Shown in pieces: positions 361-38,316 of a stretch of DNA of 53,553 bases. The position numbers and the translations under genes were made by a program. Below the pieces are notes generated by a model. The model was not told where the DNA came from. It worked only from the letters and a program-made list of their open reading frames with translations, and did not search any database. Origin of the DNA: an uncultured bacterium (GTDB lineage Bacteria; Hinthialibacterota; Hinthialibacteria; Hinthialibacterales; Hinthialibacteraceae); NCBI GenBank assembly GCA_964606645.1, contig CAZSIZ010000003.1, positions 1-53,553 on the forward strand, given 5' to 3'. Position 1 is the first letter of the stretch; the number at the start of each line of letters is the position of its first letter.

Positions 361-1233
361 ATGACAAAGCAAAGAAATTTCGCAATATTGATTCTGATTG
401 TGCTGGCAACGTTTGCTTTAAATACCAACGCCCAAGTGGAGGCACTCGAAGGAAACTGGATCACCGATGCCGGGATCGAAGGCGTGGAGTACGGCGTGCT
501 TAAAATCGATAGCAAAGGAAACGTCAGTGGTTCGGAAACCCATACCTACACCATCGATGGAACCGACACTATTTTCGATGTCGAGCACACAGGCAAAATA
601 ACCGTTAATGAAGACGATCAATACGTGTACGCAGGAATTGGAATCGGCACGGCTAGGGACTCGAATGGAACGATTCGCGTACGTCTGCAAGTAGCCGGTT
701 CGGGCATGGTTTCGGTAGATGATAATATGCTGGCCGGATTTTGGGTGAGTGTCGAAACGTATATAACACCGGATGGAGAGATTCATAGCGAAGGTGGATA
801 TCCGATGACTCTCATCCGCGAAGGATACGATCCCGGCACACCCGGTGAAGCAATCGCCGGAACGTGGAAAATTTCGATCCAAGGCGAAAACCTGGGGTGG
901 ACGGGAGAAGTGACTCTGAATCCCGATGGAACGATGGCCGGTGAGTATACCTCCGATGCCAATCTGCCTTCCGTGCCCTTATCCGGATTCTTCTCATATT
1001 CGGAAGATCATCATTTCGAGTGCACCTACACGACAACGACTGAACTACCGACAGTAGGAGAAACGACGTTTACCCTCTCCTGCGAAGGACAAGGCAATGA
1101 AGACAACACGTACATCACCGGCACGTGGTCGTTTGAGGTCGATGTGACTGACTTTCTGTCAATGACGTTCGATGGAACGTTCGATCTGACTAAAATCGAA
1201 GAAACCGGAATCCACGATTGGAATTTGTATTGA
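361..1233 (+). CDS. Secreted acidic beta-rich protein, two repeated domains, C-terminal TGIHDWNLY motif
   Basis: AGGAG RBS; Sec signal peptide ending TNA-Q; repeated xxGxW...G.L.I...G.V.G units. Confidence 0.85.
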   Translation: MTKQRNFAILILIVLATFALNTNAQVEALEGNWITDAGIEGVEYGVLKIDSKGNVSGSETHTYTIDGTDTIFDVEHTGKITVNEDDQYVYAGIGIGTARDSNGTIRVRLQVAGSGMVSVDDNMLAGFWVSVETYITPDGEIHSEGGYPMTLIREGYDPGTPGEAIAGTWKISIQGENLGWTGEVTLNPDGTMAGEYTSDANLPSVPLSGFFSYSEDHHFECTYTTTTELPTVGETTFTLSCEGQGNEDNTYITGTWSFEVDVTDFLSMTFDGTFDLTKIEETGIHDWNLY

Positions 1234-1365
1234 CCGACGGCCGGTCTAAATTTTCTTGTTCGATCGATCGTTCGGCATCCATATAGGAAATACGAATCGG
1301 GATGCTATAATCGAAAAAATCGTTGTTGGATATCAACACACACTCGAAAAGAAAGTTGCGATCAG

Positions 1366-2352
1366 ATGAAACGAACCATCCTACTATTCAGTCTCGCTTT
1401 TTGGGGAGTAACCGTTTTCGCCGCCGACGACCTCTGGGTGAAATACCAGGGCGAAAAAGGTCCGGGTAAAGGCAAGCATATCGTTATCGTCACTGGAGAC
1501 GATGAATACCGCTCCGAGGAATCCATGCCGCAGCTCGCGAAAATCCTGGCGAAACGGCACGGTTTCGATTGCACGGTTCTCTTCGCCATCGATCCCGAAA
1601 ACGGAACCATCAAGCCCAACCACCAAACCAACATTCCCGGTTTGGAAACCTTGAAAACCGCCGATCTGATGATCCTCTTCACCCGGTTCCGGGACCTGCC
1701 GGAGAACCAGATGAAACTCATCATCGATTACACCGATTCCGGGAAACCGATTATGGGATTGCGCACTGCCACCCACGCCTTTCGCGTTCAAAATAAGGAG
1801 AGCCTTTACGTGAAATACGACTTCCGTCACAAGAAATTCAAAGGCGGGTACGGACGACAGGTGCTGGGCGAGACCTGGATCAACCATTACGGCCACCATC
1901 AAAAAGAGAGTACTCGCGGATTGATCGTCAAGGGGATGGAAAAGCATCCCATCGTCAAAGGGTGTGAGGATATCTGGGGGCCGTCGGATGTCTACGGAAT
2001 CACAACCCTCCAAGGCGATTGCCAACCCATCGTCATGGGGCAGGTGCTCAAGGGCATGAAGCCGAACGATCCGCCCAATCCCGATAAGAAACTCGTTCCC
2101 GTCGCCTGGCTCAAAACGTATACCGGCTCGAAGGGGAAAACCTCGCAAATCTTCACGACCACGATGGGTCATTCAGGCGACCTGAAGAGCGAAGGTTTCC
2201 GCCGTCTTCTTATCAACGCATCCTATTGGCTGTTAGGGATGGAGAAGCAAATTCCCGCGCGGGCGGCGGCCGGTCAAGTGGGAACGTATAATCCCGGTCC
2301 CATCGGTTTCGACAAACATAAGGTTGGAGTTAAACCGTCGGATCACCGGTAG
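1366..2352 (+). CDS. Secreted ThuA-like (class I GATase-like fold) domain protein
   Basis: Signal peptide VFA-A; GDDEYRSEE, GLRTATHAF and TTMGH motifs typical of ThuA-like proteins. Confidence 0.8.
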   Translation: MKRTILLFSLAFWGVTVFAADDLWVKYQGEKGPGKGKHIVIVTGDDEYRSEESMPQLAKILAKRHGFDCTVLFAIDPENGTIKPNHQTNIPGLETLKTADLMILFTRFRDLPENQMKLIIDYTDSGKPIMGLRTATHAFRVQNKESLYVKYDFRHKKFKGGYGRQVLGETWINHYGHHQKESTRGLIVKGMEKHPIVKGCEDIWGPSDVYGITTLQGDCQPIVMGQVLKGMKPNDPPNPDKKLVPVAWLKTYTGSKGKTSQIFTTTMGHSGDLKSEGFRRLLINASYWLLGMEKQIPARAAAGQVGTYNPGPIGFDKHKVGVKPSDHR

Positions 2353-8868: not shown

Positions 8869-8929
8869 CAGATATATGTAATATTACGAATACCATATTT
8901 CCGATTGGGTCTCTCAAACGTCAAGGTGC

Positions 8930-16832: not shown

Positions 16833-18620
16833 TTAGTAGATCGACCACTCACGGACATCCGTTTCATCTCCCACAAACGGCCCGGCGTTGTAGTTCTTGG
16901 ATACGTCCTCAGCCGTGAGCGCCCGATTGTATATCGCAACAAGATGGAGCTGCCCCAGCCAGGCACGCGCCGCAGAGACTTCGTTGCCTAAACCGAATTT
17001 ATAGGTTGTGTCCCAGGTGGAGAATCCCCCCTCGACGAATTCCACTTCATCGCTCAACACCAGCCATTCGTTGTTGACGTAGCCATTCACTTCCCACGCC
17101 TGACTGCGGGTAAAGACGACATGCGTCAGGGCTTCGGTGAACGTTCCCCGGTCGGTGTTGACCGAGATCACTTGCTTTGGATTCCCGTCGGCGATATCGG
17201 TTCGATACCGCATTTCAAATCGGTCGCCACCGGCGTTGTAGTGCCCCTGGCCTAACGTAAAGTTCCGGTCCGAGGCGTCGATGGAGCAGGTGATAATCCG
17301 GGCGGGGCCGTTCTGATTGATGTTCGAGGTTTTGATCCAGCCTTCGATCGTAATCTCATCGGTGGCGATGCACGCCTCGATCAATTTCAACGCCGGTCCT
17401 TCCGTTTCGATATGATTGACACCGGTCGTTTCTAAAAAGCCATCGCCCCAGAAAACTTTGTCGATTTGCTCGATGGTTAAATCCATCGGTTCTCCCATCC
17501 CCGATCGGTCGTGAACGACTTCCCCGCCGCCCTCATCGAAAGGATAAAAGAGAACCAAACCGTCGCTCACCCGGTCGCCACCCGTAATATTCAAAAACGG
17601 CAGCAAATCGACTCCGGCGATTTCGACACTCTCTTTGACATGGCCTGTCCATTCGGCAAACTCGGATGGCGCGGAAGGCGCGGTCACTTGGTAAGCAACC
17701 GTCGTTTCACCCACCGGAAGATTGCTGAGATTCCATTGTATCACACCGTTGCTTTCCGTTCCGCCGTTGCTGACCTCACTGATGGCCCATCCTTCAGGCG
17801 GGATTTCTTCGATCGTCGCAGTCGATCGGTCCTCTCCCGATACATAAACGTTAATTTTCACGCCGATGGTGTCGTTCTCTTTATAGGACTGCTGAGAAAA
17901 ATTCCGTTGAGCGACCGGGGGCGTGGAAACGAAGGAGACACTGCTGGCTTCCACCTCACCGATTTCTTCATCGTCGGCACCGCTCCCGACAGCGATCCCG
18001 AATGCGGCGGTATCGGAAGGCCATTTCATCGTTTGGCTGTCGGCGATGTACCAAGTCTGACCGTCCGGGGAATATTCTCCAAAGAACATATCGACCGGTT
18101 CGATGCGGGTCACACGGAACCACATCCCTTCGCCCGTGTCTTGAATCGGTTCCTCGTCCGGCCCGAATAACTGGAGTGTCACGTTCCCGGAAGCACCCGT
18201 CCGCGTTCGGAAAAGCGCATTAACGGATTCTCCGACCACGCCGCCGAACTGGACCGAATAGAAATTGGAAGCGGGATCATCGGCGTTTTCACGGATCATG
18301 AGCGCACTCGGCCCCCATACCGGATAGAGTTTCGCTTGCAGCGACCAGCTTCCCGTCTTATCCGTGTAAAGATAAAATCCTTCATCCCCCGCGACGCCAT
18401 AGCCTTCTTCGATGCGAAGTCCAAACGATCCATTTCCGGTAACCCGGTATTGGGCGTTCGCTCCCGATCCTTCGACGATCGCTTCCCCCTCGACGTGCGA
18501 ATTCCCGATTTGCGGCCAATCCACGGTTTGGTCGAACAACTCGAATTGAGCGTACACCGGAGCGGTTAACAGAAGTGTCACGATAGTTAATGGAATACTC
18601 ACGACTGATATTTTACTCAT
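16833..18620 (-). CDS. Secreted multi-domain lectin-like protein (C-terminal LamG/ConA domain), C-terminal TDVREWSIY motif
   Basis: Signal peptide VYA-Q; LamG signatures YPFDEG.G..V.D.SG, ITIEGW, VAIYNRALTA; start 18620 after GGAG (alt 18635). Confidence 0.85.
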   Translation of the reverse strand: MSKISVVSIPLTIVTLLLTAPVYAQFELFDQTVDWPQIGNSHVEGEAIVEGSGANAQYRVTGNGSFGLRIEEGYGVAGDEGFYLYTDKTGSWSLQAKLYPVWGPSALMIRENADDPASNFYSVQFGGVVGESVNALFRTRTGASGNVTLQLFGPDEEPIQDTGEGMWFRVTRIEPVDMFFGEYSPDGQTWYIADSQTMKWPSDTAAFGIAVGSGADDEEIGEVEASSVSFVSTPPVAQRNFSQQSYKENDTIGVKINVYVSGEDRSTATIEEIPPEGWAISEVSNGGTESNGVIQWNLSNLPVGETTVAYQVTAPSAPSEFAEWTGHVKESVEIAGVDLLPFLNITGGDRVSDGLVLFYPFDEGGGEVVHDRSGMGEPMDLTIEQIDKVFWGDGFLETTGVNHIETEGPALKLIEACIATDEITIEGWIKTSNINQNGPARIITCSIDASDRNFTLGQGHYNAGGDRFEMRYRTDIADGNPKQVISVNTDRGTFTEALTHVVFTRSQAWEVNGYVNNEWLVLSDEVEFVEGGFSTWDTTYKFGLGNEVSAARAWLGQLHLVAIYNRALTAEDVSKNYNAGPFVGDETDVREWSIY

Positions 18621-19148
18621 TGTGAAATTCTCCATTCCCCTGTTTTTTCGGAAACTTAACGCTCTAAGTTATTCGATTTATTCAAGAATGTCAACCGATA
18701 CCTATTCATTATTTCGATCAAACGATTTACTTTGCCCCTTGATAAAATATCGCCCCACAACCATCCAGCAAAACTGGAAAAACAAGAGACTTTTCAATCG
18801 GTCATTCAATGATTGTTCCCTCTATATCACATCTAATTCAAATATACCCCCATATTATCGTCTCTACACGAAGTCACTGATCGTCAACAGCAAGGAGCAG
18901 CAGTTTGCTAAGTCAAGACGGATCAGCATCAATAGAATTGGGCAATCCATTCATTGCACCTAACGCACTAAGATGGACACGTTGGGATGAAATTGATAAT
19001 TTTTCAGGTCAGAGAGGGACAAGGGAGAGCTAAAGCATATATTACGTGAGCGCTATCTCTTCAAAGAGATAAAGTTCGATACGTTCATGGCACACGCAGG
19101 CTTGGCATGCACGCTTCAGAGTATGTTAAGATACATTGAAAGTACGTT

Positions 19149-20666
19149 TTAATGAATCATCCAGTTGGATACCTTCGTGGCAGGCCCTCCCAGGATGAGT
19201 AATCCATAACTCGACTCGACATGCGGGGTTCCCTGCCAGCGGAGTTGATAGTCCGGTTCGCTTCCTTCGGGATCGTCGTCGTTCACCGCCAGATTGAATC
19301 CGACTTGCTCGAAACCGACAAGTGTTTCTTTCTTGAAGCGCATTTCACCCACCCATCCATTATCATTTTCAGTAGCCCAGGCCCACCAATCGGAGCCGTC
19401 ATCCTCGCCGATTAACGGAGAGTTTTGCGTATTGGAATCTCGAGTGGCGTTCCCTGCCGTCAACACGAATTGACCTTCAATATATTCGGCGCTGTCGTAC
19501 CGGTTATTACTTCCGTTCGATCCGTGGCTGAGGTCCTGGTCGATGAACACCTCGATCGAGTCATCGTGCCAGGTATTGGCGTTGTGCGATCCCTCCGGCT
19601 CAGTATCGTGAATCACCGCGTTATCTTCGACGATCACAGCGACGTATAGCCATGTCTCGTCGTGCATGATATGGGCCGTATAAGCGATATCGCCTTCCAG
19701 GGCAGGCATGATGTCTTCGATCAGCACGCCTTCGATCGGTGTAATATTCTCTACTGCCGCTTTCGCCCAATCCCCTTCATCCATCACCCCGTCGATTGCA
19801 ACCGGTCCGTCAACTAAAGGAGCGGTTAAGGTTCGGGGACCGAAATATAACGTGCCGTAGGTCGATTCGACGTGCGCCAAACCGGTCCATCGCAACTGAT
19901 AGCGGGGATCCGCGTCGTCATCGTCGTCGTTGATCGCGACATTAAAACCGACCGTCGATCCTTTTTGGGGATTCCCGATCTTCGACAGTTTGATTTTCAT
20001 TTCTACTTCGTATCCGGTATCAGTGATTTCCGCGATACCGTACCAATCGGCATCTTGCCCGAACGATGGATTTCCCGCTTCGTTGTCGCGTCGCGCGTTG
20101 ACGCAAGAGATCACGAACTGACCACCGGTGGCGAATTCACGATCCTGATCGGCCGAAGAAGCGCCGGTTAACGATTGATCGAATTTGCTGTGGTCGCCGT
20201 CGATGAAAATCTCCACCGAATCATCATTCCAGGTCGCTTCGTCTTCGCTGTCGGGAGCGGCGTCGTTATAGGCCACGACATCGTCAAGCACTCGCACGGC
20301 GATATAAAAGTATTCATCGTCGTATATCGTGTAAACCGTGCATGAGCAATCGTTGGTGTCGAACGGCACATCGTCGGGTTGGATGGAATCCACCACACCG
20401 GTTTGTTCGCCTAACCCTTCATAGGTGAGATCCCATTGAATGCTCCAAAAGGAACTCGTTGGACTCGAACTTTGGGGTGAATATTGCCATTCCGAACCAT
20501 CGATGAAGCCGTCAATGACCGGGGCGACTGTCCCTTGATCCGCGTAAAATGATACTGGAGCGGTCGTCATGTAGGGTGATTCGGCTGCGAATAAGGGTGT
20601 AAGTGATGCACTGGCAAGAATGAGTGAGAGGATTAAAACGTGAAACGAATGCGAATATTTCATCAT
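19149..20666 (-). CDS. Secreted protein with two tandem CBM9/DOMON-like sugar-binding domains, C-terminal TKVSNWMIH motif
   Basis: Duplicated IDG...EW, W.DDS.E.FID, VGFN.A.NDDD, YQLRW.G..HVES.YG; signal peptide; GGAGG RBS. Confidence 0.88.
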   Translation of the reverse strand: MMKYSHSFHVLILSLILASASLTPLFAAESPYMTTAPVSFYADQGTVAPVIDGFIDGSEWQYSPQSSSPTSSFWSIQWDLTYEGLGEQTGVVDSIQPDDVPFDTNDCSCTVYTIYDDEYFYIAVRVLDDVVAYNDAAPDSEDEATWNDDSVEIFIDGDHSKFDQSLTGASSADQDREFATGGQFVISCVNARRDNEAGNPSFGQDADWYGIAEITDTGYEVEMKIKLSKIGNPQKGSTVGFNVAINDDDDDADPRYQLRWTGLAHVESTYGTLYFGPRTLTAPLVDGPVAIDGVMDEGDWAKAAVENITPIEGVLIEDIMPALEGDIAYTAHIMHDETWLYVAVIVEDNAVIHDTEPEGSHNANTWHDDSIEVFIDQDLSHGSNGSNNRYDSAEYIEGQFVLTAGNATRDSNTQNSPLIGEDDGSDWWAWATENDNGWVGEMRFKKETLVGFEQVGFNLAVNDDDPEGSEPDYQLRWQGTPHVESSYGLLILGGPATKVSNWMIH

Positions 20667-20959: not shown

Positions 20960-21964
20960 TTATTGGCTGGCTGCATCTCGGATCGCGCGATGCGCCTTCG
21001 CCGCTTCGATCAGAAGCGCTTCCAGTTGGGCGTAATAGTCCTTCCCGTCCATTCCGTTTTTCTGTTTTTTCCACGCGCCGATGGTCTCTAAAACCGACAG
21101 ATAATGCTTGATGAGTTCGGGCGGCGTGTCGGGCGAAAACGAATGTTCTTTCAGAAAGCAATTCGCAGCGTTGTGCCCGTCGCTGCCGGGATCAGATTCG
21201 GATTCATTCAAAACAATCGGCAGGCGGGTTCCCCGTCCATCGCCGTTGTCGTCCATTAGAGCGTGTTCCGTCGCGAGGTTTCCCTCACCGGTATACCATG
21301 CGTCAGTCAGTGAAGCGGCCTGTCCGCAGGCTTCGAGAATGGAAATGCGTCCGTCGCGGTTCGTGTCTGCGCTTCCGTCTTCAAGGCCTTGAAGAAGAAA
21401 TTCCATGAATTCGGGCGCGTTCCGCTCGTTCACATTTTTAACCGCCGTGCAGACGATTCGCCCCGGCACGGAAAGGATGTTGATAAATCCCGCGCTGCTG
21501 GAAGACGTGTCGATGACGGCAGTCCGGCGGGCATTCACGCGGGAAACAAGCCGGTTCAATTCGCCGGCGGTCAGGTCCGGTCCGGGAATCTGGAATTTGG
21601 GTTCATTGCGCAGGGAACTGCCGTGTCCGGTCAGAAAAACGAATAGATCATCTACATCTGTCATTTTTGATTCGAGTTCGTTGAATTCGGAACGAATATG
21701 AAAGAGCGACGTCTCTCGATCGGGCGTCTCGATCGATTCAGACCGTTCCGCCATCCAGCAGACATTTTCCTCAGGATGCCCCAACTTAACAGTCAAAACG
21801 TGTTTCAATCGCGCTCCCCATGAAGTAAATTTTTGTTGATAGTCCTCGATGCCCCCACTCCCGCCGATGATGAGAATGGTTGTTTTCGCCCCTCCCGCGT
21901 TGGGAAGCATCGCGAACAGGATAATAAATAACATCAGGATCGATGAGCGAATTGAAATGATCAT
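20960..21964 (-). CDS. Secreted caspase/legumain-like fold protein, catalytic Cys apparently absent
   Basis: ATGA overlap with upstream stop at 21961-21964; signal peptide; FLTGHGS and IDTSSSSAG. Confidence 0.7.
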   Translation of the reverse strand: MIISIRSSILMLFIILFAMLPNAGGAKTTILIIGGSGGIEDYQQKFTSWGARLKHVLTVKLGHPEENVCWMAERSESIETPDRETSLFHIRSEFNELESKMTDVDDLFVFLTGHGSSLRNEPKFQIPGPDLTAGELNRLVSRVNARRTAVIDTSSSSAGFINILSVPGRIVCTAVKNVNERNAPEFMEFLLQGLEDGSADTNRDGRISILEACGQAASLTDAWYTGEGNLATEHALMDDNGDGRGTRLPIVLNESESDPGSDGHNAANCFLKEHSFSPDTPPELIKHYLSVLETIGAWKKQKNGMDGKDYYAQLEALLIEAAKAHRAIRDAASQ

Positions 21965-24399: not shown

Positions 24400-24509
24400 T
24401 TTAGACTGATATTTAACAATACGTTCGTAATGGCGTATGTAAAATCCCGACAAAGCACGGGATTTTACAAGTCGTAACGCATTCAATCCGACGATACTTT
24501 TGAAAACCG

Positions 24510-28022: not shown

Positions 28023-28051
28023 GGTGTTCGCTCCTTTCTCTGCGTTTTCGG

Positions 28052-30196
28052 TCAGGCTTCCCGTCTCCGTGAAAGCGACGATGCGTACCAAATTTCAACG
28101 GCAAATAGCAACGTCAACAACCCGATGACGAAGCGGCCGTATTCACGAACGAGTGCCGATTCGGTGTTGGGTGAAAGAGGCTGACGAATCGGCGATTCTC
28201 CCACAGCGGCAAGTGTTGAATGGAATTTCCATCGAAATTCGTCGAGCGGAATTCGCGCTGGATTCGATTCCTCCGTTCGGATGTTGACTGCTTCGATGAA
28301 GGTTCGCTGTGCCGGATCGGCGCTTTGCCACTGGAGAAAACCGGCATGTTCCAAGCGCATCGTATCCGGCTCGAAAGGCGTCAACGCCGTTTCCCCCGGC
28401 CGCTGAATGAGCCAATGGCCGTCGCTTCGACTTGTGATTGCGGGAGGAATCAGTCGGTCCCCGGTTTTTCGTTCCTCGATGATTGTCCCGCTTCCTCCGA
28501 GATAAGCCAGCGTTTCAAAAACGAGTGGGAGAAATTTGGGATTCTTCGGCAGATCGCTCCAATCCAAATTCGGCGTAAACGCCCAGACGATCGCCCTCCC
28601 CTGATGATAGCGAATGTCGAGAATGGCGGGTGCGCCCTCATCCAGGGATTCCTCCTCAAACCGTGCAAGTGTTTTTACATTCAAATTGGGATCATCCGGT
28701 CCATTCGATATCGACTCCAGCCGGATGTAATTGAAAAAACGAATCGTGGAAAAATCATTATACTGCGCACCCTGAAATGGAAGAAAAACCGGATGCTCGA
28801 AATCAATCCAGGACAACAAGTTGAATTGATTTTCTACCCTGGCGGTATATCGGAGATCCCCTGCATGGAATCCCAACGGTTCAAACAAAGCGGTATCGAC
28901 AGAGGGCGTAATCGTCGATTCGTTCAACGCCAGAACGGCGTTCCCTCCCTGACGTATGTAGGAGATTAGGGCCTCTGACAGTGAGGGCGAAAGCGTTTGA
29001 CAGTCACAGAGAATCAGAATATCGGGCGGCCCCTCAGCCGATTGAAGCGTTTGCACTAAATCACCTGAACCGATTCGCCGAACGGTCAACAGACGCTTGG
29101 AGGCCGACTGGATCGCCTGAGTAAGAAACCACGTAGCGGGCCATCGTTCACCAGGCGGCGCATCCGAAACGATAATCACCTGTTTTTTGCGGGGAGAAGT
29201 CCAAGTGAAATAGCGCCGGTTATCAATCTGCAAATCATCGTCATCCAGCTGCAACCACCCTTGAATCGATTGCCCCGTTGTGTGGGGGATTTGAAATGAA
29301 ATCTGCGATGCGTTCCCCGGTTTAACGCTCAGAGTCCGAGCCGCCGTATCCTGCCCATCGATATGAAGCGTAACGTTTCGGGAACGTGTGGAATCCAGCG
29401 ATTCGTTGCGGATTTTCGCCCTCAGCCGAACGACGCCGTTTTTCTCGGAACGGATGTTCGACTCGACAATGGCGTAGTTATCGGTTGCTTCGGTTTCCAC
29501 ATCCACAAGATCGAGTTCAATCCGTGAAGGCAGTTTCCATCCAGTATGCGACGAAGGCATCCCCGCTTGCTGAAAGTCGGAGACAAGATGAATCACTTGT
29601 TGAACGGTTTCGCGCCCGCCTTTGTCATAAGCGGCCAACATCGCCTGCGCTTTCTGTAAAACCGGCAGGTACGCGGTCCCCTCTTCGGTGAGATTCGCGT
29701 TTTGGATGGCTTCACGCGCGCGGCTTTGGCTGCCCGCTTGAGAATCATCAGCACTCCATAGAGGAGCCAGGATCGTTGCTTGCTGCGAAAATCCAATGAC
29801 CCCAACCTTGTCGCCGGATCGAACGTCGTCCAGAATGCGCAACGCCTGGTCCTTCGCGTTCTCAAAACGCCCGGCCGTGCCCATGCTGTACGACGTGTCG
29901 AGAAGAATTAAATGCAGGGCCGATCCTTCGGGGATATCGGGCTGAATGGCCGAAAGCCAGGCGGGGCGCGTGAACGCAAGCGCGATGAGCAGCAAAACCA
30001 GCATTCGAAGCAGCATCAGCAAGATGTGCTGAATGCGCCGCCGCTCGATCACTTCCCGCTTGATGTCCGGCACGAACATCAGGCTGCTGAAATCGACCGG
30101 CTCACGTTCGGGCCGCCGGATTTGATGGAGAATCCAGGGAACGGCAAGCAGGGAAAGGCCGCCAAGAAATAATGGAGCGAGTAAAGAGAATCCCAT
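28052..30196 (-). CDS. BatA (N-terminal double TM) + vWA domain protein
   Basis: P.ILH......FSSLMF, LR.L...LA..RP, MIDAS DTSYS, DN.RYF; TGATG overlap with the DUF58 stop. Confidence 0.88.
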   Translation of the reverse strand: MGFSLLAPLFLGGLSLLAVPWILHQIRRPEREPVDFSSLMFVPDIKREVIERRRIQHILLMLLRMLVLLLIALAFTRPAWLSAIQPDIPEGSALHLILLDTSYSMGTAGRFENAKDQALRILDDVRSGDKVGVIGFSQQATILAPLWSADDSQAGSQSRAREAIQNANLTEEGTAYLPVLQKAQAMLAAYDKGGRETVQQVIHLVSDFQQAGMPSSHTGWKLPSRIELDLVDVETEATDNYAIVESNIRSEKNGVVRLRAKIRNESLDSTRSRNVTLHIDGQDTAARTLSVKPGNASQISFQIPHTTGQSIQGWLQLDDDDLQIDNRRYFTWTSPRKKQVIIVSDAPPGERWPATWFLTQAIQSASKRLLTVRRIGSGDLVQTLQSAEGPPDILILCDCQTLSPSLSEALISYIRQGGNAVLALNESTITPSVDTALFEPLGFHAGDLRYTARVENQFNLLSWIDFEHPVFLPFQGAQYNDFSTIRFFNYIRLESISNGPDDPNLNVKTLARFEEESLDEGAPAILDIRYHQGRAIVWAFTPNLDWSDLPKNPKFLPLVFETLAYLGGSGTIIEERKTGDRLIPPAITSRSDGHWLIQRPGETALTPFEPDTMRLEHAGFLQWQSADPAQRTFIEAVNIRTEESNPARIPLDEFRWKFHSTLAAVGESPIRQPLSPNTESALVREYGRFVIGLLTLLFAVEIWYASSLSRRREA

Positions 30197-31134
30197 CACC
30201 ACCCTCCGTCGGATGGCCGATTACGTTTCGTCCCGGCTGCGCGCAGCATCCGGTTTCGGTGCTGGATAAAGAGATGCAGCGCCCGGTCCAAAGGTTCGTT
30301 CGTCACGAACTCGCCATAGTCGATATCCGCCGTCAGACAGGTTTGACGAATGGCGGAAAAATGGTTGTCGCGGTTTTCCAGATATTGTTTCCGGACCGCG
30401 TCCGGCGTGACGTATTGTTCCCGCGAATCTTCCAAATCCACCAGGGTCACGGTGCGGTCGAACGGAAATGTCTGTTCCGCGATATCGCTGATCTGCATGA
30501 CCAGCACATCCTGTTTTCGGGCGCGCACGAGTTTCAAGCGCTCGGCGATCCCTTCGGCGGGGTGCAGCAGATCGGAAATCAACACGACCAATCCCCGTGG
30601 TTTCAAGAGATCGCCCAGATCGTGCAGCGCTTTGTTTAAGTCCGTTTGTCTCTCCGCCTTCAGATTGGCGAGTTCAACCATGAGTCGTCGAAAGTGGCTG
30701 GGAGTGTTCCGTGGGGGGATATAAACATAGCGGTCCTCGTGGAATCCCAGCAGTCCCACGGCGTCTTTTTGCTGTGCGAGAATCGTTGCCAGGCAGGCGG
30801 TCAGCATCCGGGCATACGTAAATTTCGGCACTTCACCGGATGCGTAATTCATCGACGCGCTGCAATCCAGCAGTAGCAAACACCGCAGATTGGTTTCGTC
30901 TTGAAACTGCTTGACGTGAAGCCGGTCGGTGCGGGCGTAGAGCGGCCAGTCGATAAATCGGGGGTCGTCGCTTTGGGCGTAGGGGCGGTATTGGGCGAAC
31001 TCGACGGACGATCCGAAAAAGGGACTTCGATGCAGCCCGGTCATGAATCCGCGAACCACGGACCGGGCCAACAACTGCAAATCCGCAATACGGATCAGTT
31101 GAGCCGGATCAAGCCCTTGCAACGCATTCTGCAT
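30196..31134 (-). CDS. DUF58 family protein
   Basis: G.H.S...G.S.EF..YRPY...DD.R.IDW, LLDCSASM, LISDL. Confidence 0.92.
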   Translation of the reverse strand: MQNALQGLDPAQLIRIADLQLLARSVVRGFMTGLHRSPFFGSSVEFAQYRPYAQSDDPRFIDWPLYARTDRLHVKQFQDETNLRCLLLLDCSASMNYASGEVPKFTYARMLTACLATILAQQKDAVGLLGFHEDRYVYIPPRNTPSHFRRLMVELANLKAERQTDLNKALHDLGDLLKPRGLVVLISDLLHPAEGIAERLKLVRARKQDVLVMQISDIAEQTFPFDRTVTLVDLEDSREQYVTPDAVRKQYLENRDNHFSAIRQTCLTADIDYGEFVTNEPLDRALHLFIQHRNRMLRAAGTKRNRPSDGGW

Positions 31135-31148
31135 AACTCACCGCCAAG

Positions 31149-31173
31149 CAGTTTTCAGTTTTCAGTTATTAGT
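31149..31173. repeat. Heptamer tandem repeat CAGTTTT/CAGTTAT
   Basis: CAGTTTT CAGTTTT CAGTTAT TAGT visible just upstream of DUF58. Confidence 0.7.
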
Positions 31174-31230
31174 CCCTTATCAGTCAAATTGAACGCAAAA
31201 CGGTCGCAAAATCAATAATCCGCGACTAAT

Positions 31231-31265
31231 CCCCTCTCCCTCTGGGAGAGGGTTAGGGTGAGGGT
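31231..31265. repeat. BoxC-like palindromic intergenic repeat
   Basis: CCCTCTCCC-tct-GGGAGAGGG-TTAGGGTGAGGG matches the widespread CCCTCACCCTAACCCTCTCCC...GGGAGAGGG family. Confidence 0.8.
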
Positions 31266-31353
31266 AAAAATGCAAAAGCGTATCGATTTCACAATAACTT
31301 TTTTAGACCAATAGACCCTAAACTCTGTTTTAACCAATTTTACAGATAAGGCC

Positions 31354-32385
31354 CTAACTCAATCCCGATGTCGGCTGCGGCACGCATTCCAAAAGACGGT
31401 CAATAATATTCTCAACACTGACATGATCCGCCTCGGCGCGGAAATTGATCAGAATGCGATGGCGCAGCACCGGCGCGGCCACAGCACGGATATCGGCGCA
31501 GGAAACGTGATAGCGGCCTTCCAGCAGCGCGCGGGCTTTCGCCGCCAGGATCAGATTTTGAGAGCCGCGAGTCCCCGCTCCCCAGCCGACCCAATTGCGC
31601 ACGAACTCCGGCGGGTCCGGTTCCGACGGGCGGCTGGTTTGAACCAGCTGCACGGCGTACCGGGCGACCGGTTCGGCGATCGGAACCATCCGCACCAGCC
31701 GAGCGAATTCAAGCATATCGCCGCCGGTGAAAACCGGGTTCAACTGAAAGTCCTGGACGGCGGTCGTCTGAGTGACCACCTCCAGTTCGTCGTCTTCACT
31801 CAGATAATCGATGTCGATGTTGAACATGAATCGGTCCAGCTGCGCTTCGGGCAGCGGGTAGGTCCCTTCCAGTTCGATGGGATTTTGGGTGGCGAAGACG
31901 TAAAACGGCTGATCCAATGGTCGAACTTCTCCCGCCACCGTAACCTGCTTCTCTTCCATCGCTTCCAGCAAGGCCGCCTGAGTCTTAGGCGGCGTGCGGT
32001 TGATTTCGTCGGCGAGGAGAATATTTGTGAAAACGGGGCCGGGGATAAAGCGCATTTCCCGGTGTCCCGTGGCGCGGTCTTCGTCGATGATTTCCGTTCC
32101 GATGATGTCGGACGGCATCAAGTCGGGTGTGAACTGGATGCGCTTGAATTTCAGGTCCACGATCTGGGCGATCGACCGGATCAGCCGGGTTTTGGCCAGG
32201 CCGGGCGCACCGGTGATCAACGCGTGGCTGCCGGTGAAGAGAACGATCAGCATCTGCTCGATGACTTCGTCCTGGCCGACGATGGACCGGCGCAATTCTT
32301 CAAGCAGGCGTTCGCGTCCGTCACGCAGTTTATTCAACGCCTCTTCTTCGGATGGAGTTTGCATCGTTTGCGTTTCGTTCTGCAC
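31354..32385 (-). CDS. moxR: MoxR family AAA+ ATPase
   Basis: Walker A GAPGLAKT, RIQFTPDLMPSD, Walker B LADEINR, ATQNPIE.EGTYPLPEAQLDRF. Confidence 0.96.
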   Translation of the reverse strand: MQNETQTMQTPSEEEALNKLRDGRERLLEELRRSIVGQDEVIEQMLIVLFTGSHALITGAPGLAKTRLIRSIAQIVDLKFKRIQFTPDLMPSDIIGTEIIDEDRATGHREMRFIPGPVFTNILLADEINRTPPKTQAALLEAMEEKQVTVAGEVRPLDQPFYVFATQNPIELEGTYPLPEAQLDRFMFNIDIDYLSEDDELEVVTQTTAVQDFQLNPVFTGGDMLEFARLVRMVPIAEPVARYAVQLVQTSRPSEPDPPEFVRNWVGWGAGTRGSQNLILAAKARALLEGRYHVSCADIRAVAAPVLRHRILINFRAEADHVSVENIIDRLLECVPQPTSGLS

Positions 32386-32400
32386 GTCAACCTCGTAGAT

Positions 32401-32487
32401 TAGGGTATAGGATCTAGGGTTTAGGGTCTTTTGTGACCGTTTTGTGATTGATGGTACAAGACCCTAACCCCTAAACCCTAGACCCTG
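32401..32487. repeat. Inverted heptamer array (TAGGGTN)4 - spacer - (NACCCTA)4
   Basis: Left arm 32401-32430, right arm 32458-32487, imperfectly complementary. Confidence 0.85.
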
Positions 32488-32489
32488 CT

Positions 32490-33359
32490 TTAATGCGTCA
32501 TGGCATACACGACGATATTGATTCCTAGAGGGTACGCCTTTTTCTTTGAAAATTCATCGAAATAGATCGGGTTCCGGGCTTCTTCTTCCCAGCCGTCTCC
32601 CAGGTCGGTGTTATGCAGGACCACCGCCATTAACCGCCCTTTTTTATCGAACACGCCTTTGCAACTGGGGATTCGGCTGTCCTCGCCACGTTCGGACGTT
32701 CCCCCGCCCGTCCCGTACCAATATCCTATGCCGGGGATTTGGGGCACTTCTTCGATGTCGAAGACGATGTGAAAGATTTCGTGATCCAGGGGGATATCGA
32801 TCATTGGATATTCGTCCGGCGGGAAGACTTTGCTGAATTCGTATTCCCAGTTCGCCCAGGCTCCCGATCCCCAGAAATCGTCCACCATCAAAAAACCGCC
32901 CCGTAGAAGGTAGTCCCGAAGTTGGGCCGCCTCATCCTCCGAAAAAAACAATCCCCCCACTTCCAGCATATAAGCGAAGGGATAGTGATAGAGGTCTTCG
33001 TCCAGCAGATCGACGCAGACGTGTTTGATCCGTCCGTCCTTGGTGCGGTTGATCTCGATCGTGGTCAGTTCCGACAGGCGTAGAGGGAAATTCAGGTCGG
33101 ATTCCGGGTAGTCGGTCCGCCAGCTCCCCCAGCCCCCGCGCCTTCCACCACCCCCGCCGAATAGGCCCCCCTCCCGCCTGCCCAGGCTTTTGTAGGCCAT
33201 CCGGCAGAAACTAAAAGCGTTGCCGGGGAAGATATCCCGTTCGGGCGCTTGGTAATCGCGGCCTCTTCGCCCCCAGTATTGCGCGGAAGCATCCTGCGGC
33301 AGCATCTCGATTGCTGTCAGGAATAGAATAAAAACGAGCGTTCGAATCAGTCGGTTCAT
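32490..33359 (-). CDS. Secreted DUF4159 family protein
   Basis: W.TDYP..D, YPF.Y, LRDYLLRGGFLMVDDFWG, NTDLGDGWE, GINIV.YAMTH; likely start 33359. Confidence 0.9.
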   Translation of the reverse strand: MNRLIRTLVFILFLTAIEMLPQDASAQYWGRRGRDYQAPERDIFPGNAFSFCRMAYKSLGRREGGLFGGGGGRRGGWGSWRTDYPESDLNFPLRLSELTTIEINRTKDGRIKHVCVDLLDEDLYHYPFAYMLEVGGLFFSEDEAAQLRDYLLRGGFLMVDDFWGSGAWANWEYEFSKVFPPDEYPMIDIPLDHEIFHIVFDIEEVPQIPGIGYWYGTGGGTSERGEDSRIPSCKGVFDKKGRLMAVVLHNTDLGDGWEEEARNPIYFDEFSKKKAYPLGINIVVYAMTH

Positions 33360-33360
33360 A

Positions 33361-36000
33361 TCAATTGAGTTTATCATCCCGTTCGACGATCGTCAGCAGC
33401 AAACGCTGCGCATCCCAGAAATGAGGGAACTCCTCCAGCAGTTGGATCGTATCGGATTTCGCCTCGTTCCATCGTTTCAGTTGAATCAAAATCTCAATGG
33501 CTTGCAGGCGGTGTTCCATCCGGCGGGAGGGATCGAGTTCGGTCAGCTGCCGCACGATGGATAACGCTTCAACGCTTTTATCGCTGTGAAGATAACTTTC
33601 GGCCAAGGTTTTTCTCAGCCCCGTATCGAATGGATCGATCCCCAGCGCCAGATCGGCCACGTTGGCGATCTCTTTCCAATCGCGATCTTCGCTTAACAGT
33701 GTAAGCAACCGGCGGCACTCGGAAAGCGCCGTCGCGTCCCATTCGGTAATCCGTTTCAAAGTCTCAATCACACGATCCCGTTTTCCCCAACGCTCGTACA
33801 CCTGTGCGAGTTGCCGGAGGGGCGCGTCTTCGCCCTGGTAATCGGGGAACAATTCATGAGCGGTCTGGAGCGCATGTTCAGCCTCTTCCCAGCGTTCTTC
33901 GGAAACGTGTTTCATCCCTTCGCGCATCGCGTCGGTGAATGGTGAAGATCGCTCGATCCACCGTTCGTTGGTTTCGGTTTTTTTAAAAATCCGCTCCAGG
34001 AGATTCGACGCGCCATCCGGTTTCGATTGAACCGCCGGAAGGTTTCGATAGGCGGATAGCCGCTCACCCAGGTGTTTTTTGAATGTCTGGTCGATTTTCT
34101 CCACCGATGAGTCGCTGGCCTGTGCCAAGGATTCGTTGGCTTTCTCTCCTTTGCCAATTCGATCCAGCGCTTCCCGCATCGCTTCGATCCCGTAAGTGTC
34201 GATGTAAAACTCGACGAACTCCGCAGCCAGCAGATAGCCCAACATGAGGTGCTGCGGAGTTTTGGGCTGGGTAAAGAAACGTTCCAACTCCGTCAGGCCG
34301 GGCGGCGATTTCAAATCCAGGATGGTTTTATACTGGATGTCCATCGTCTGCCCCCAGGCCGGTAAGCGCTGGGTCTCTTCGTAAACGGAAATGCCCTCGG
34401 AAAGCCAGCGCGGCATGAGGTTGTTCGTTTTTTGCAGCGTGATCGCATGGACGAATTCGTGCCAGAGCACCGACCGCCAGTTCGCGGTCTCCTTGAGTCG
34501 GGCCGAGGGTGAATCCATCGTGACCAGCCGCCCGAAGCAGATTCCGAGAAACCCGGTGTTGCCGGGCAGCCCCAGAGAACGCACCATGAAATCGTCGTGA
34601 TCGTCGAATATTTGAATGTGGACGGGCGTTTTGAGTTGGATATCGTATTTCTCTTGATAGGTCTCGTAGGCTTCCATCAGCAGGTTCAGCGCGTCCTCGG
34701 CGATAACATCCTTTTCGGAGGAAGGCAGGCGCAGCACAAACGGTCCCCGCTCCACTTGGGCAAACGTCTCAAGCGAATCCAGCAGTTTGAGCATGTTGTA
34801 GACATGAACGTTATATGGATCCGCCTTGAACGCCGTTTCCAACAACTGGCGGCCTTCGTCTTCCTCTCCGAGCCGGAGCAGATCGAGCGCCAGCAAGGTT
34901 CGCGCTTCGTTGTCGTCTGGATTGGCAAGCAATGCCCGGCGTTGAAATTCGACCCCTTCTTCAAAACGGTAATTCCTCGACGCGATACGGCCTGGAACCC
35001 GAAAGACGCCGGAAGCGTGGGGATTGAACTGGATCGTGTCCTCCTGAATGCGTTTCATTTCGTCTGAATCACCGTTCAGAAAATACGCCGCCGTTTGCAG
35101 AGAACGCAGGGGGATATAATGGGGATTGACCGTCAGCGCCCGGTTCGTGATCTCCAACGCTTCGTCCATTTCCCCGCTTTCCAGTAAAAGTTCCGCTTGA
35201 ATGGATATTCCCTTGAACGAATTCGGATTGAGTTCGAGGAGTTTCGTCAACGGTTCCTGAACGCGGGGGTCGCTCGCTTTCCAGTAACACTCGGCCAATC
35301 CCGCCAGCGCCTCCTGGTTATTCGGCTTCAAGTTGAGCGCGCTGGTGTAATATTTTTCGGCCAGATCGTACGCTTTATGCCGAAGCGAAAGGCCGCCCGC
35401 TCCACTGTATCCCGGCGCGAACGTAGGAGCCTGTTCCATCAGCACAGTATAAATCGTAGCCAGCAGTTGTTTTGGATTTTCACCCCGTAATTCCGCGATC
35501 CTTGCAATAGCCAATAGATTGTATTCCTGGGTGTGGTAACGCCATCGGTTGTTTTCCAAGACGGCCCGCTCAAGTGTTTCCTTGTAATCATCCAATCGCC
35601 CCCGATCCCGGTAACGCTGAGCGAGGCGCAGCAGAAACGCAGGCTCCGGATTGCTTTCGACGACCCACTCCAAGTCTGTTATGGCATCGTCCACTTCACC
35701 GATAGCGAAACGCAGTTCAGAGCGATCCGATATCCACCGAACGTACCGGTAGATGCGTGAGTTCAGCAGTTCCGGCCTGGATTCCATCAGCTGCTTCTGG
35801 GTTTCGAGCGCCTTGCGGTATTCCCCCCGTTCCCATTCCTCATAGTAGTTTTCAGTGATTGAAGAGATATATCCAACCGGCTGTCCATTCGCGTGACGAA
35901 CGGTCTCCCCGGTCAGAAACAGAAGGATGCCTGCAAAGAGCGTCAATCGGGCCGCTCTCTGTATCGTACTCATCATCAAGTGTTGGGGCCGTCGAATCAA
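33361..36000 (-). CDS. TPR-repeat protein with gluzincin (peptidase MA-like) domain
   Basis: Multiple TPRs; HEFVH...PRWLSEG zinc motif; N-terminal hydrophobic signal (start may be ATG 35976/35973). Confidence 0.88.
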   Translation of the reverse strand: MIRRPQHLMMSTIQRAARLTLFAGILLFLTGETVRHANGQPVGYISSITENYYEEWERGEYRKALETQKQLMESRPELLNSRIYRYVRWISDRSELRFAIGEVDDAITDLEWVVESNPEPAFLLRLAQRYRDRGRLDDYKETLERAVLENNRWRYHTQEYNLLAIARIAELRGENPKQLLATIYTVLMEQAPTFAPGYSGAGGLSLRHKAYDLAEKYYTSALNLKPNNQEALAGLAECYWKASDPRVQEPLTKLLELNPNSFKGISIQAELLLESGEMDEALEITNRALTVNPHYIPLRSLQTAAYFLNGDSDEMKRIQEDTIQFNPHASGVFRVPGRIASRNYRFEEGVEFQRRALLANPDDNEARTLLALDLLRLGEEDEGRQLLETAFKADPYNVHVYNMLKLLDSLETFAQVERGPFVLRLPSSEKDVIAEDALNLLMEAYETYQEKYDIQLKTPVHIQIFDDHDDFMVRSLGLPGNTGFLGICFGRLVTMDSPSARLKETANWRSVLWHEFVHAITLQKTNNLMPRWLSEGISVYEETQRLPAWGQTMDIQYKTILDLKSPPGLTELERFFTQPKTPQHLMLGYLLAAEFVEFYIDTYGIEAMREALDRIGKGEKANESLAQASDSSVEKIDQTFKKHLGERLSAYRNLPAVQSKPDGASNLLERIFKKTETNERWIERSSPFTDAMREGMKHVSEERWEEAEHALQTAHELFPDYQGEDAPLRQLAQVYERWGKRDRVIETLKRITEWDATALSECRRLLTLLSEDRDWKEIANVADLALGIDPFDTGLRKTLAESYLHSDKSVEALSIVRQLTELDPSRRMEHRLQAIEILIQLKRWNEAKSDTIQLLEEFPHFWDAQRLLLTIVERDDKLN

Positions 36001-36201
36001 AATAGAGTCACCTGCAAGCCAATATTCATTTAAACGATGATTTCCCGATATTATTCGTGTTTTTTCTCATAAAAACAAATCGTAAACCGAAAAAGTAAAA
36101 TTGGCTATGTACTTTCAGCCTCAGAAGTTGAATATAGATATGAAATGGAGAAGAATAGAGTCGAAAAGACGAAGAGGAACGAAGATGAAAAAGGGAGCGA
36201 G

Positions 36202-38316
36202 TCAATGGTCGGCCCAATGAAGGACGTCCGTTGAATCAAGTATCAGATCGAAGACATCCAGGCCGAATTTGCTTCTCGACTTGTACAAGCGGTTCCCAGA
36301 AAGCGCCGTCCCCCCGCTAACGCTGCCGCCGCTTGATGGTATCCGGGCACATTCAACGGAATTTCCTTCCGGATCGACTTGATAGAAAACAATGGTGTCC
36401 GAATTCACCAATCCCAACACATTCTGATACCAGAATCCATACCAGGCCTTGGGGAATGGGACGGGCTTGTAGGGAACGGGATTCTTCGGGTCGCGAAAAT
36501 CGACGATGCCCGATCGATCCCATCCGGCGTAACCGAGCATGCCGTCATGAACCGCGAGATCGATGAACGACAGAGAATCTTCTCCTTGATTCACTTCAAC
36601 CTGAGAGAGTAAGAGAGGCTGCTGTGGATTCTCCAATGAATAGAGGAAAAGATAATCATAATATTTAAAGGGAGGGGTGTCTTCCGAGTAGTCTCTCACC
36701 GATTCGGTTTTTGAAAAATATAAATGATCTCCGCTCAGGCATAGGCGAGTGGAATTTTTTTGGATTTCAATTTTTGCTTCAGGCACAGAAGAAATGACCG
36801 AACCGGAACGGGAGAATATCCAAAGATCCGTCCTGGAAACGTCATGCCCTTGATAGGACATTGCCACGATAAACAGATCGCGATTCCACACGATTGGCCC
36901 GAAGAGAGAGAAATTTTCATCATCGGTCGGAAGAAAGGGTAAAACGACAGGCGGTCCGACCAAGCCATTGTCCAAAATTTCGTAAAACGTCCTATCCGTG
37001 TTTGAGAAGATTCCGACCAAAGAATGATGGGCCTCGATGTAAGTGTATCGTTCTTCCGGCAGAACGATTCGATCCACTTCTTTGATATCGGAAGGAACAG
37101 CCCCATCCAGCGTCAGCAAAATGTTTCTACCGTTCTCATCCTTATATTTGGAATAAATGTATTGCCCATTCGCGGCAATCCCGCCAGGTTGGAATGACGT
37201 TTTCGCGGAGACCGCAACCTGCCGGGGATTCTTCGGATCGCGGATATCGTAAGCCCCAACTGAAGATTGGTTGCTGTGAATCAAAAACTCCGGCCCCAAG
37301 GCGAATCTCCATACAGGATAAGAAATCGTTGACGCCTTCTCGTAGGCAGGTCCGATTTTCTGATAGAGGTCAAGCGCATTCTCAGGATCGTCTGGGTTGG
37401 GCAATGCAATCAGCGAATCGAACATCGCCGCAATGGTATTACTCCCGAATCCACAATTGAATTTCTGAATTATTTTCGGTTGGTCCCGCTGGCTCCAATC
37501 CGTCAAAACGGCTTCCATTTTCAAGTGCGAAAAGCCCATCGTAATGAGCAGTAGTTTTGAGGCATTTTTGATACTAAAAAAATAAGGATTTCTAGGGCTG
37601 TCAAGCCAACGATTCTCTGAAAGCACGAGTTCGTTACTGTTTGAAATCCACCCGGAAGTCATAAAGGGCGTGCCTCGTCCATTCGAATAATAGAAATTAC
37701 CATCCATGATTTCTAAGTTATTGATCCGGACATCTTCAGGAATGGGGTATCGGGATGTTTCCCCGGCGATGGGTTGTACGACCAATTCCGAAATGTCCCC
37801 GTCAGCCACCATATAGATCGTCTCTCCCTCCAAGGCCTTCTCCCTCACTTTCCCAATATTCGGGATCGTTCCACGATAGGTCACTTGTTGAGTTTTCGCA
37901 TGATCGATAACGATGTATTCGAGAGCGTCATCACCTTGGTAAAGCAAAACGGTGATATTGTCGTTCGACAGGCCTCCCCGCATAACAAGACTTTCAGATA
38001 AATTCGATTGTCCGTCATCAAGATGAATCGAAAACGCTTCGAGCAATTCGCCCTGGCTGGCCTCAAAATAGCGGATGATTCGCTTTCTCTCCTCCCGCCC
38101 TATCAGTACATAGTATGGCTCCGCATACAGAATATTTTCGACTGCGATCGTATCCGCTTCACCTGAGTAATTTCCTAAATACTCTACAGTCAGCGGTTGG
38201 ATCGAAGCGGCGTCATTGTGAACCAGCGCTGAAAACAGGACCAGAATCGAAACGAAAACCAACCTTGACTTGAGGCACAATGGAAAGCCTGTTACCTGAA
38301 CGAGTGTTGAATTCAT
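36202..38316 (-). CDS. Secreted LVIVD-like beta-propeller repeat protein, C-terminal TDVLHWADH motif
   Basis: Repeats YDIRDPKNPRQV, YSLENPQQPLLL, VDFRDPKNP, GLDVFDL; start 38316 after AGGAG; hydrophobic N-terminus. Confidence 0.78.
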   Translation of the reverse strand: MNSTLVQVTGFPLCLKSRLVFVSILVLFSALVHNDAASIQPLTVEYLGNYSGEADTIAVENILYAEPYYVLIGREERKRIIRYFEASQGELLEAFSIHLDDGQSNLSESLVMRGGLSNDNITVLLYQGDDALEYIVIDHAKTQQVTYRGTIPNIGKVREKALEGETIYMVADGDISELVVQPIAGETSRYPIPEDVRINNLEIMDGNFYYSNGRGTPFMTSGWISNSNELVLSENRWLDSPRNPYFFSIKNASKLLLITMGFSHLKMEAVLTDWSQRDQPKIIQKFNCGFGSNTIAAMFDSLIALPNPDDPENALDLYQKIGPAYEKASTISYPVWRFALGPEFLIHSNQSSVGAYDIRDPKNPRQVAVSAKTSFQPGGIAANGQYIYSKYKDENGRNILLTLDGAVPSDIKEVDRIVLPEERYTYIEAHHSLVGIFSNTDRTFYEILDNGLVGPPVVLPFLPTDDENFSLFGPIVWNRDLFIVAMSYQGHDVSRTDLWIFSRSGSVISSVPEAKIEIQKNSTRLCLSGDHLYFSKTESVRDYSEDTPPFKYYDYLFLYSLENPQQPLLLSQVEVNQGEDSLSFIDLAVHDGMLGYAGWDRSGIVDFRDPKNPVPYKPVPFPKAWYGFWYQNVLGLVNSDTIVFYQVDPEGNSVECARIPSSGGSVSGGTALSGNRLYKSRSKFGLDVFDLILDSTDVLHWADH

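Follow-up and report, generated by a model that had tools for sequence, protein, structure and literature searches.

The question raised by this locus is why four otherwise unrelated exported proteins, all encoded in one 53,553-nucleotide stretch of DNA (hereafter the window, which is contig C3 of the 6.43-Mb, 541-contig assembly of an uncultured bacterium, genome G000), should end in nearly the same nine residues: TGIHDWNLY, TDVREWSIY, TKVSNWMIH and TDVLHWADH, in each case with the stop codon immediately after the last translated residue. An earlier note on this DNA took these ends for a candidate protein-sorting signal, and our translation reproduced the four tails and the 30-nucleotide coordinates, stop codon included, that it gave for them. 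These four tails proved to be examples of a C-terminal tag that recurs across the proteome and is restricted by lineage; we refer to it as the W-tail. The genes and their tails are located as follows.

361..1233, + strand: P0001 gene, a 290-residue exported acidic protein with the tag, no Pfam family over the cut-off
1204..1230, + strand: W-tail TGIHDWNLY of P0001, stop codon 1231-1233
16833..18635, - strand: P0002 gene, a 600-residue exported protein with a C-terminal Laminin_G_3 domain, whose Pfam match ends at residue 579 and is followed by the tag
16836..16862, - strand: W-tail TDVREWSIY of P0002, stop codon 16833-16835
19149..20666, - strand: P0003 gene, a 505-residue exported protein with two CBM9 domains
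19152..19178, - strand: W-tail TKVSNWMIH of P0003, stop codon 19149-19151, tail kept in orthologues L001 and L002
36202..38379, - strand: P0004 gene, an exported protein of up to 725 residues, likely start 38316, no Pfam hit
36205..36231, - strand: W-tail TDVLHWADH of P0004, stop codon 36202-36204, a weaker variant with D rather than L/I/V at position -2

All four proteins begin with a hydrophobic, signal-like N-terminal segment and have isoelectric points (pI) of 4.05-4.81. The longest open-reading frame (ORF) of P0004 contains, 21 codons in, an internal ATG at 38316, which was previously proposed as the start and is the likelier of the two. Searches of the Atlas gave a lead only for the fold of P0001, and likewise only a lead, to LVIVD beta-propeller-like features, for P0004. 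The tail is absent from the remaining signal-peptide-like proteins of the window, which include FG-GAP, heparinase II/III-like, Gfo/Idh/MocA and DUF4159 proteins, members of a Bat/MoxR-type operon and others, so that the earlier statement that other exported proteins of the window lack it holds for this class.

Frequency, position and consensus in the genome

Across the whole of G000, the strict pattern T.[IV]..W..[YHF] was terminal in 64 of 28,067 ORFs of at least 60 residues. The same pattern occurred internally 37 times in 3.96 million positions, from which 0.26 terminal hits would be expected, an enrichment of ~240-fold; a frequency above background had been set beforehand as a test of the proposed signal. 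The position is equally sharp, as among ORFs of at least 150 residues the motif ended at the stop codon in 63 cases, at an offset of +1 in eight, +2 in three and +3 in one, with scattered occurrences beyond. A motif this short could in principle arise by chance, by compositional bias or from a repeated DNA element lying at gene ends, and shortness is the one property that speaks for such an origin, to which we assign a negligible probability: besides the enrichment and the low counts of a reversed control pattern (see below), 63 of the 64 30-mers encoding the tails are distinct, their identity at third codon positions is 0.40, and the tails draw on all four Thr codons and on seven Val/Ile codons. 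These varied synonymous codons indicate that the tail is under selection at the level of the protein.

In the 64 strict tails, T at -9 and W at -4 are accompanied by V (46) or I (18) at -7, D as the commonest residue at -5 (21), S (20), E (18) or M (9) at -3, L (40), I (13) or V (4) at -2, and Y (39), H (13) or F (12) at -1, with G, P, T, D and E abundant at -10 to -13 upstream of the core. The earlier observation that T always stands at -9 holds for the four window tails, whereas genome-wide Thr is preferred and not obligatory, with ~35 further carriers having V, A, P or S in its place. A pattern free of this position, [IV]..W.[LIVM][YFH]$, was found in 91 genes among the greedy set of 5,160, and further variants had F or Y at -4, or one to three extra residues after the motif. 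The combined relaxed definition gave 136 genes against ~5 expected by chance, and the consensus is [T>V,A,P]-x-[V/I]-x-[D>N,H,E]-W-x-[L/I/V]-[Y>H,F]-COOH.

Carriers, folds and homologues

The carriers have little in common apart from their ends. After the last 14 residues were stripped from the 136 relaxed carriers, BLAST sorted them into 75 clusters, of which 57 were singletons and the largest had 32 members. Pfam was run on 64 carriers (the four window proteins and 60 drawn at random from 117 eligible) and returned 79 families, including CBM9 (8), Laminin_G_3 (5) and DUF5123 (3), along with FG-GAP, beta-helix, MtrC/MtrF-like multihaem cytochromes, S8 and S15 peptidases, WD40 propellers and CotH. 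What the carriers do share is the appearance of exported proteins, as had been predicted from the window: a signal-like h-region was present in 109 of 122 carriers with intact N-termini (those among the 136 with an ORF that does not run off the end of a contig) and in 1955 of 3900 other genes, an odds ratio of 8.3 (Fisher p 1.3e-19) obtained with a crude, over-inclusive predictor. The median pI was 4.24 in carriers against 6.46 in the genome, and a lipobox-like motif was seen in one of 136. The description of the tail as lacking a transmembrane helix or basic end also applied at this scale, with one of 136 carriers having a transmembrane-like stretch within its last 50 residues and the tails ending in W-x-[LIV]-[YHF].

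The W-tail is a tag, independent of the fold that carries it and not part of a domain. In P0002 it begins ~5 residues past the end of the LamG domain, and a distant LamG homologue stops at the domain end and has no tail. An AlphaFold2 model of P0002, built on 16 orthologues (mean pLDDT, the per-residue confidence of the model, 73), placed residues 582-600 at pLDDT <50, the last ten averaging 28, which suggests that the tail is a disordered, flexible extension past the last folded domain. At the same time the tail is conserved where the proteins themselves have diverged: W is invariant in 16 of 16 LamG orthologues and V at -7 is at least 90% conserved, at overall identities of 56-68%, and all six of the orthologues that were read individually keep the tail while the x positions vary. 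Both CBM9 orthologues, L001 and L002, which come from other metagenome-assembled genomes, keep it too.

Among exported proteins the tag is selective. Thirteen of the 16 CBM9 genes in G000 are tagged and a fourteenth has a degenerate form, whereas none of 66 sulfatase genes has a W-tail. Genome-wide there are 77 sulfatase-family matches, none tagged, a number which fits a specialist degrader of sulfated polysaccharides. The remaining two CBM9 genes end instead in a beta-signal of the outer-membrane protein (OMP) type. These two, at C484:1451-3523 and C1:43875-46001, encode proteins of ~700 residues ending in ...KIAYTF and ...KLTFTF, respectively, and resemble a CBM9 module joined to a barrel of the outer membrane, which would give the same domain family a different end in place of the W-tail. 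We therefore considered whether the W-tail could itself be an ordinary beta-signal of outer-membrane beta-barrel proteins, read by the beta-barrel assembly machinery (BAM). It shares with the BAM beta-signal and the OMP YxF tail its shortness, its place at the extreme C-terminus, its aromatic end and its occurrence on Sec-exported proteins of a diderm, and G000 has a single BamA. Against this, the barrel-type C-termini of G000 are made of alternating hydrophobic residues ending in F (BamA itself ends in ...FSFGQSF, others in the two sequences just given), while the W-tail has W at -4, L/I/V at -2 and Y/H/F at -1 on soluble, non-barrel proteins (LamG, CBM9, propellers, cytochromes), past whose domains it extends as a predicted disordered segment. 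We regard a BAM beta-signal as extremely improbable.

Homologues of P0003 show what else can stand at this place. When 119 database homologues were sorted by their C-termini, 38 had a strict and 26 a relaxed W-tail (64 in total), three had a PEP-CTERM-type end, 46 a '...FYRVR'-type end and six other ends, which together with the LamG orthologues bears out the conservation expected of a genuine signal. The PEP-CTERM-type ends (VPEP, a hydrophobic stretch, then an Arg/Lys cluster) occupy the same place as the W-tail, and NCBIfam model TIGR02595 recognised two of the three over its cut-off, while the W-tail homologues searched alongside them had no match; this detection serves as a positive control for the NCBIfam negatives on W-tail carriers. 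The '...FYRVR'-type end belongs to homologues from other lineages (two of them labelled Verrucomicrobia; examples are P0045, P0047, P0048 and P0119), has no NCBIfam model, and may be another uncharacterised C-terminal module or signal.

Distribution, drift and the search for a reader

To follow the tag between genomes we counted a degenerate DNA pattern for T-x-[V/I]-x-x-W-x-x-[Y/H/F/L]-stop, with its reversed form as the control, in 401 genomes, comprising 35 species genomes of the one-class phylum to which G000 belongs and 366 genomes of other families; the pattern is approximate, as it misses Val GTG (11 of the 64 G000 tails) and accepts Leu CTY at -1 and TGG for the stop. Reversed-pattern counts were low in all genomes counted. 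All 20 genomes of family f1 had 20-87 pattern hits against 0-16 in the control, and G019, G020, G029, G030 and G034 had 26-39 against 2-12. A weak excess was found in G021-G026 and G032 (9-14 against 1-5) and none in G027, G028 and G033 (2-5 against 2-7). In 400 kb each of G028 and G027 we found no W-tail on called genes except for one marginal match, on a 167-residue ORF with no signal peptide. Among the 366 genomes of other families the highest count was 15 against 9 in the control and none reached 20, and in G037 and G062, the two of these that had looked best at first, the matches were only random-looking. The tag is therefore restricted to one candidate phylum among the genomes sampled, being enriched in most of its members, and the lineage specificity suspected from the window holds over this sample. 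NCBI labels close homologues 'Candidatus Omnitrophica/Omnitrophota bacterium', and OLB16/Hinthialibacterota was formerly placed in Omnitrophota (PMC9324843); that paper contains none of the terms 'C-terminal', 'sorting', 'pseudopilin' and 'type II secretion'. CBM9 proteins follow the same division, with a tail on eight of ten in G029 and G034 and on none of six in G027, G028 and G033. A search with P0003 as the query found no orthologue of it in the tag-poor genomes, whose CBM9 proteins belong to other subfamilies, so that an exchange of tags within the phylum could not be shown.

The tag also drifts between lineages. In 31 readable tails of G034 (genus g24), translated by hand, position -2 was L (13), Q (9), I (3), E (3), N (2) or M (1), so that in this genus it is often Q/E/N, and Y stood at -1 in 30 of 31, compared with L/I/V at -2 in 57 of 64 tails and Y, H or F at -1 in G000. 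A concerted change at these two positions across unrelated proteins is what would be expected of a single co-evolving reader.

On this evidence we think it probable, though by no means certain, that the W-tail is a sorting tag with no transmembrane segment and a free C-terminus, borne by Sec-exported proteins and read by a shared receptor. A few residues rich in G, P, T, D and E would link the tail to the final folded domain in more than 100 very acidic, Sec-exported non-lipoproteins, which would pass through Sec and then fold in the periplasm. One shared receptor would read the flexible tail at or beside its free carboxyl end, probably binding it as an added beta-strand, because the conserved residues alternate along the tail, and would send the cargo across the outer membrane and/or hold it on the cell surface. 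The most plausible exporter would be one of the type II secretion system (T2SS) machines of the phylum, a link which, taken on its own, is the weakest step and which we regard as doubtful. The tag proposed in the earlier note stands after each of the refuting tests that the note named, and the secretion or anchoring role and the machinery are what we infer from it.

A reader may not be needed if the aromatic-hydrophobic end (V, W, L, Y) acts as a tether of its own, binding the outer leaflet, lipopolysaccharide, cell-bound polysaccharide or an S-layer. Trp and Tyr are typical residues of membrane interfaces and sugar stacking, the tail is exposed and disordered in the model, and many carriers are lectin-like. 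The regular spacing, the preference for Thr at -9 and for Asp at -5, the exact terminal position and the way in which -2 and -1 change together from lineage to lineage point instead to one specific, co-evolving binding site; nine residues with one Trp would make a weak membrane anchor, and such a tether would leave the crossing of the outer membrane unexplained. We judge such a tether to be distinctly improbable.

Another possibility is that the tail is read by a periplasmic protease or sensor that recognises C-termini (a PDZ-bearing S41/Ctp/Prc enzyme, a tricorn-like protease or HtrA/DegS), and is thus a propeptide, a degron or an envelope-stress signal. OMP YxF tails activate DegS, and Ctp/Prc enzymes trim C-terminal extensions of ~9-16 residues; the motif sits at a free C-terminus with a hydrophobic-aromatic end, and G000 encodes five S41 peptidases (two of ~1160 residues) and at least 11 PDZ proteins. 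Compared with peptides read by PDZ domains of the DegS/Prc type, the last residue is a conserved aromatic, while the second residue before it (-3), which canonical PDZ pockets read, is the most variable of the core, with -2 and -4 conserved instead. Tag-rich and tag-poor genomes have similar S41 and PDZ repertoires, the place of the tail is taken in homologues by bona fide surface-sorting signals, and the cargo resembles surface or extracellular proteins, with sulfatases excluded, all of which make this improbable in our view.

Returning to a sorting receptor, a neighbour-enrichment screen around W-tail genes singled out one family, GspG-like pseudopilins, of which G000 has ~135 genes with a prepilin N-terminus. 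Such a gene is the neighbour of 17 of 136 W-tail genes and of 189 of 4889 other genes (odds ratio 3.6, p 3e-5), and the excess is weaker against other secreted proteins (56 of 1038, p 0.004). These pseudopilins, of ~200 residues, are almost identical at the prepilin N-terminus and have in common the conserved motifs TTP.AY...P.DPF and SNGL.S.GD (for example C101:14350-15054, C322:5046-5639 and C435:2216-2881), and they are expanded phylum-wide, with 32-196 first-look T2SSG candidates per genome. A complex prediction of a GspG-like soluble domain with the last 36 residues of the neighbouring W-tail protein gave a score of 0.00 (mark 0.32, no controls) and counts neither for nor against binding. 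G000 has seven secretin matches and two complete T2SS-like clusters, both with GspG-K, L/M-like, GspC-like and GspD proteins; the GspC-like proteins of both have an HR-like domain and no PDZ domain, and the idea that a PDZ domain of GspC reads the tail was therefore dropped. Family f5 has multi-N-domain GspD orthologues (G029:C11, G034:C9, G028:C6 and G033:C377) in open frames of 1,636-3,966 residues with many repeated Secretin_N-like stretches, which would be unusually large secretins. We hold it to be quite unlikely that the W-tail serves as the linear address for a new Sec-dependent surface route which, in the boldest version, would make it the first linear targeting signal for a machine of T2SS type, with the ~135 pseudopilins acting as cargo adaptors or display stalks.

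Exosortase was rejected as the reader, as PF09721 had no match in G000 or in any genome of families f1, f2, f3 and f6, which leaves the main order of tag users without it; families f4 and f5 do have it. The tag-rich g24 genomes G029, G030 and G034 have a second, divergent exosortase paralogue, which G026, G028 and G033 do not have, and this paralogue cannot account for the tag, as exosortase is lacking in family f1.

Several results weigh against a shared receptor as we have described it. Within the phylum no candidate family tracked the presence and absence of the tag. The GspD secretins of C114 type (35 of 35 phylum genomes) and C26 type (33 of 35) both occur in tag-poor members, a 708-residue unknown protein beside the C114 secretin was found in f1 and f2 only, Omp85/BamA is present in one copy nearly everywhere (tag-poor G027, G028 and G033 included), S41 peptidases are everywhere, and PDZ_2 repertoires are similar in two tag-rich and three tag-poor genomes. 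A TPR and Peptidase_MA gene of the window (33364-36000), which adjoins the fourth carrier, is missing from five tag-rich f1 genomes and present in tag-poor G028 and G033. T2SSG counts do not correlate with tag numbers, genomes of genus g21 having up to 136 first-look candidates but 9-14 pattern hits; pseudopilin adjacency covers only 12.5% of W-tail genes and is not significant against other acidic secreted proteins (10 of 151, p 0.11). As the distribution of the tag over the phylum is matched by none of the families tested, and T2SS genes are also found in tag-poor relatives, the T2SS link stays an unproven hypothesis. In 11 carriers one to three residues lie beyond the motif, so strict recognition of the carboxylate cannot be universal. 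Finally, gene calling relied on a greedy longest-ORF script and signal-peptide prediction on a hydrophobicity rule, both crude.

Between the W-tail genes of the window lies a Bat/MoxR-type operon (21964-36000, - strand), whose members are a TPR and Peptidase_MA_2 protein (879 residues), DUF4159, a MoxR AAA_3 ATPase, DUF58, a BatA/VWA protein, a DUF4175-like protein of 1193 residues and a GATase1-like protein. At 49312-51218 (+ strand) an AAA_21 ATPase (417 residues) is followed directly by an RloB-like protein (217 residues), a pairing frequent in phage-defence islands. In the assembly as a whole, ~50 contig ends share one sequence and ~47 another, over a stretch of at least 24 nucleotides, so that several truncated ORFs begin with identical peptides; the common sequence is probably a multi-copy repeat or mobile element that broke the assembly.

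Comparison with known sorting systems

LPXTG, PEP-CTERM and the type IX secretion (T9SS) C-terminal domain (CTD) each led to a dedicated machinery and made surface proteomes readable from sequence. The W-tail marks ~2-3% of genes in an uncultured phylum of polymer-degrading bacteria and offers a direct listing of the likely surface proteome or exoproteome of its members, and the occurrence of tag-rich and tag-poor genera inside one family provides a sharp phylogenetic profile for finding a receptor or exporter. In family f5, genus g24 is tag-rich, and G028 (g26) and G033 (g27) are tag-poor. If transplantable, the W-tail would be a very short tag for export or display. A full-text literature search found no published description of such a motif in the text it covered, and within the literature and the Pfam and NCBIfam searches the W-tail is undescribed so far.

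That the W-tail belongs to a known C-terminal sorting system, whether LPXTG, PEP-CTERM, GlyGly-CTERM, MYXO-CTERM or the T9SS CTD, is a reading to which we give almost no credence. A preprint lists seven attributes of small C-terminal sorting domains (bioRxiv 10.1101/2023.06.07.544157), and the W-tail shares five of the seven with the tripartite signals: C-terminal position, many copies per genome, at least three near-invariant residues, signal peptides and unrelated carriers. Its signature is made up of W (-4), V/I (-7) and, at -1, an aromatic or His, along with a preference for T at -9 and for L/I/V at -2, and it is lineage-restricted, as are the tripartite signals and their enzymes (LPXTG/sortase, PEP-CTERM/exosortase, GlyGly-CTERM/rhombosortase and MYXO-CTERM/myxosortase). 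Unlike them, it is only ~9 residues long and has neither a transmembrane segment after the motif, as the protein ends there, nor a basic cluster, so that it gives an intramembrane or membrane-anchored sorting enzyme nothing to hold; a transmembrane-like stretch was the single exception among 136 carriers, and exosortase was not found in f1, f2, f3 and f6. NCBIfam gave no sorting-signal match to the four window proteins, even at E up to 1, and no sorting model among the 25 families listed of 43 matched, and the PEP-CTERM control worked; the expectation that no characterised sorting-signal hidden Markov model covers the tail was therefore borne out.

The T9SS CTD is a folded beta-sandwich of ~70-100 residues which marks Sec-exported cargo for passage through the outer membrane and attachment to the surface, and its cargo, with dozens to hundreds of carriers per genome, is folded and often a lectin-like protein, a protease or an adhesin. 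W-tail carriers are similarly Sec-exported, folded and often lectin-like, but the W-tail consists of 9-12 residues past the last domain, disordered in the model (pLDDT <50), where a T9SS CTD would be a folded domain of ~80 residues. No Por_Secre_tail-type family was found in the four window proteins or among the 25 listed for the 64 carriers, and SprA_N was not found in G000, although it also matched none of 14 control genomes. In all that can be read from sequence the W-tail behaves as a protein-sorting signal would, but its architecture excludes the known sortase-like, T9SS and BAM mechanisms.

Substrates of the type I secretion system, which have a C-terminal signal and no N-terminal signal peptide, differ from W-tail carriers, 109 of 122 of which have signal-like N-termini. 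As with T2SS substrates, the carriers have signal peptides and the genome has T2SS clusters, along with a large pseudopilin family. Such substrates (MtrC/OmcA cytochromes, GlyGly-CTERM proteases) are exported by Sec, fold in the periplasm, with haem attachment where it applies, and leave the cell folded; we know of no linear C-terminal T2SS signal, and the W-tail, if the T2SS link is true, bears on the old question of how the T2SS chooses its cargo. A new surface route of this kind would be matched by none of secretion types I-XI and by none of the sortase-like systems, and the build of the tag is equally unlike that of LPXTG, PEP-CTERM and the T9SS CTD, consisting as it does of nine residues, with no membrane anchor and no folded domain, at a free C-terminus.

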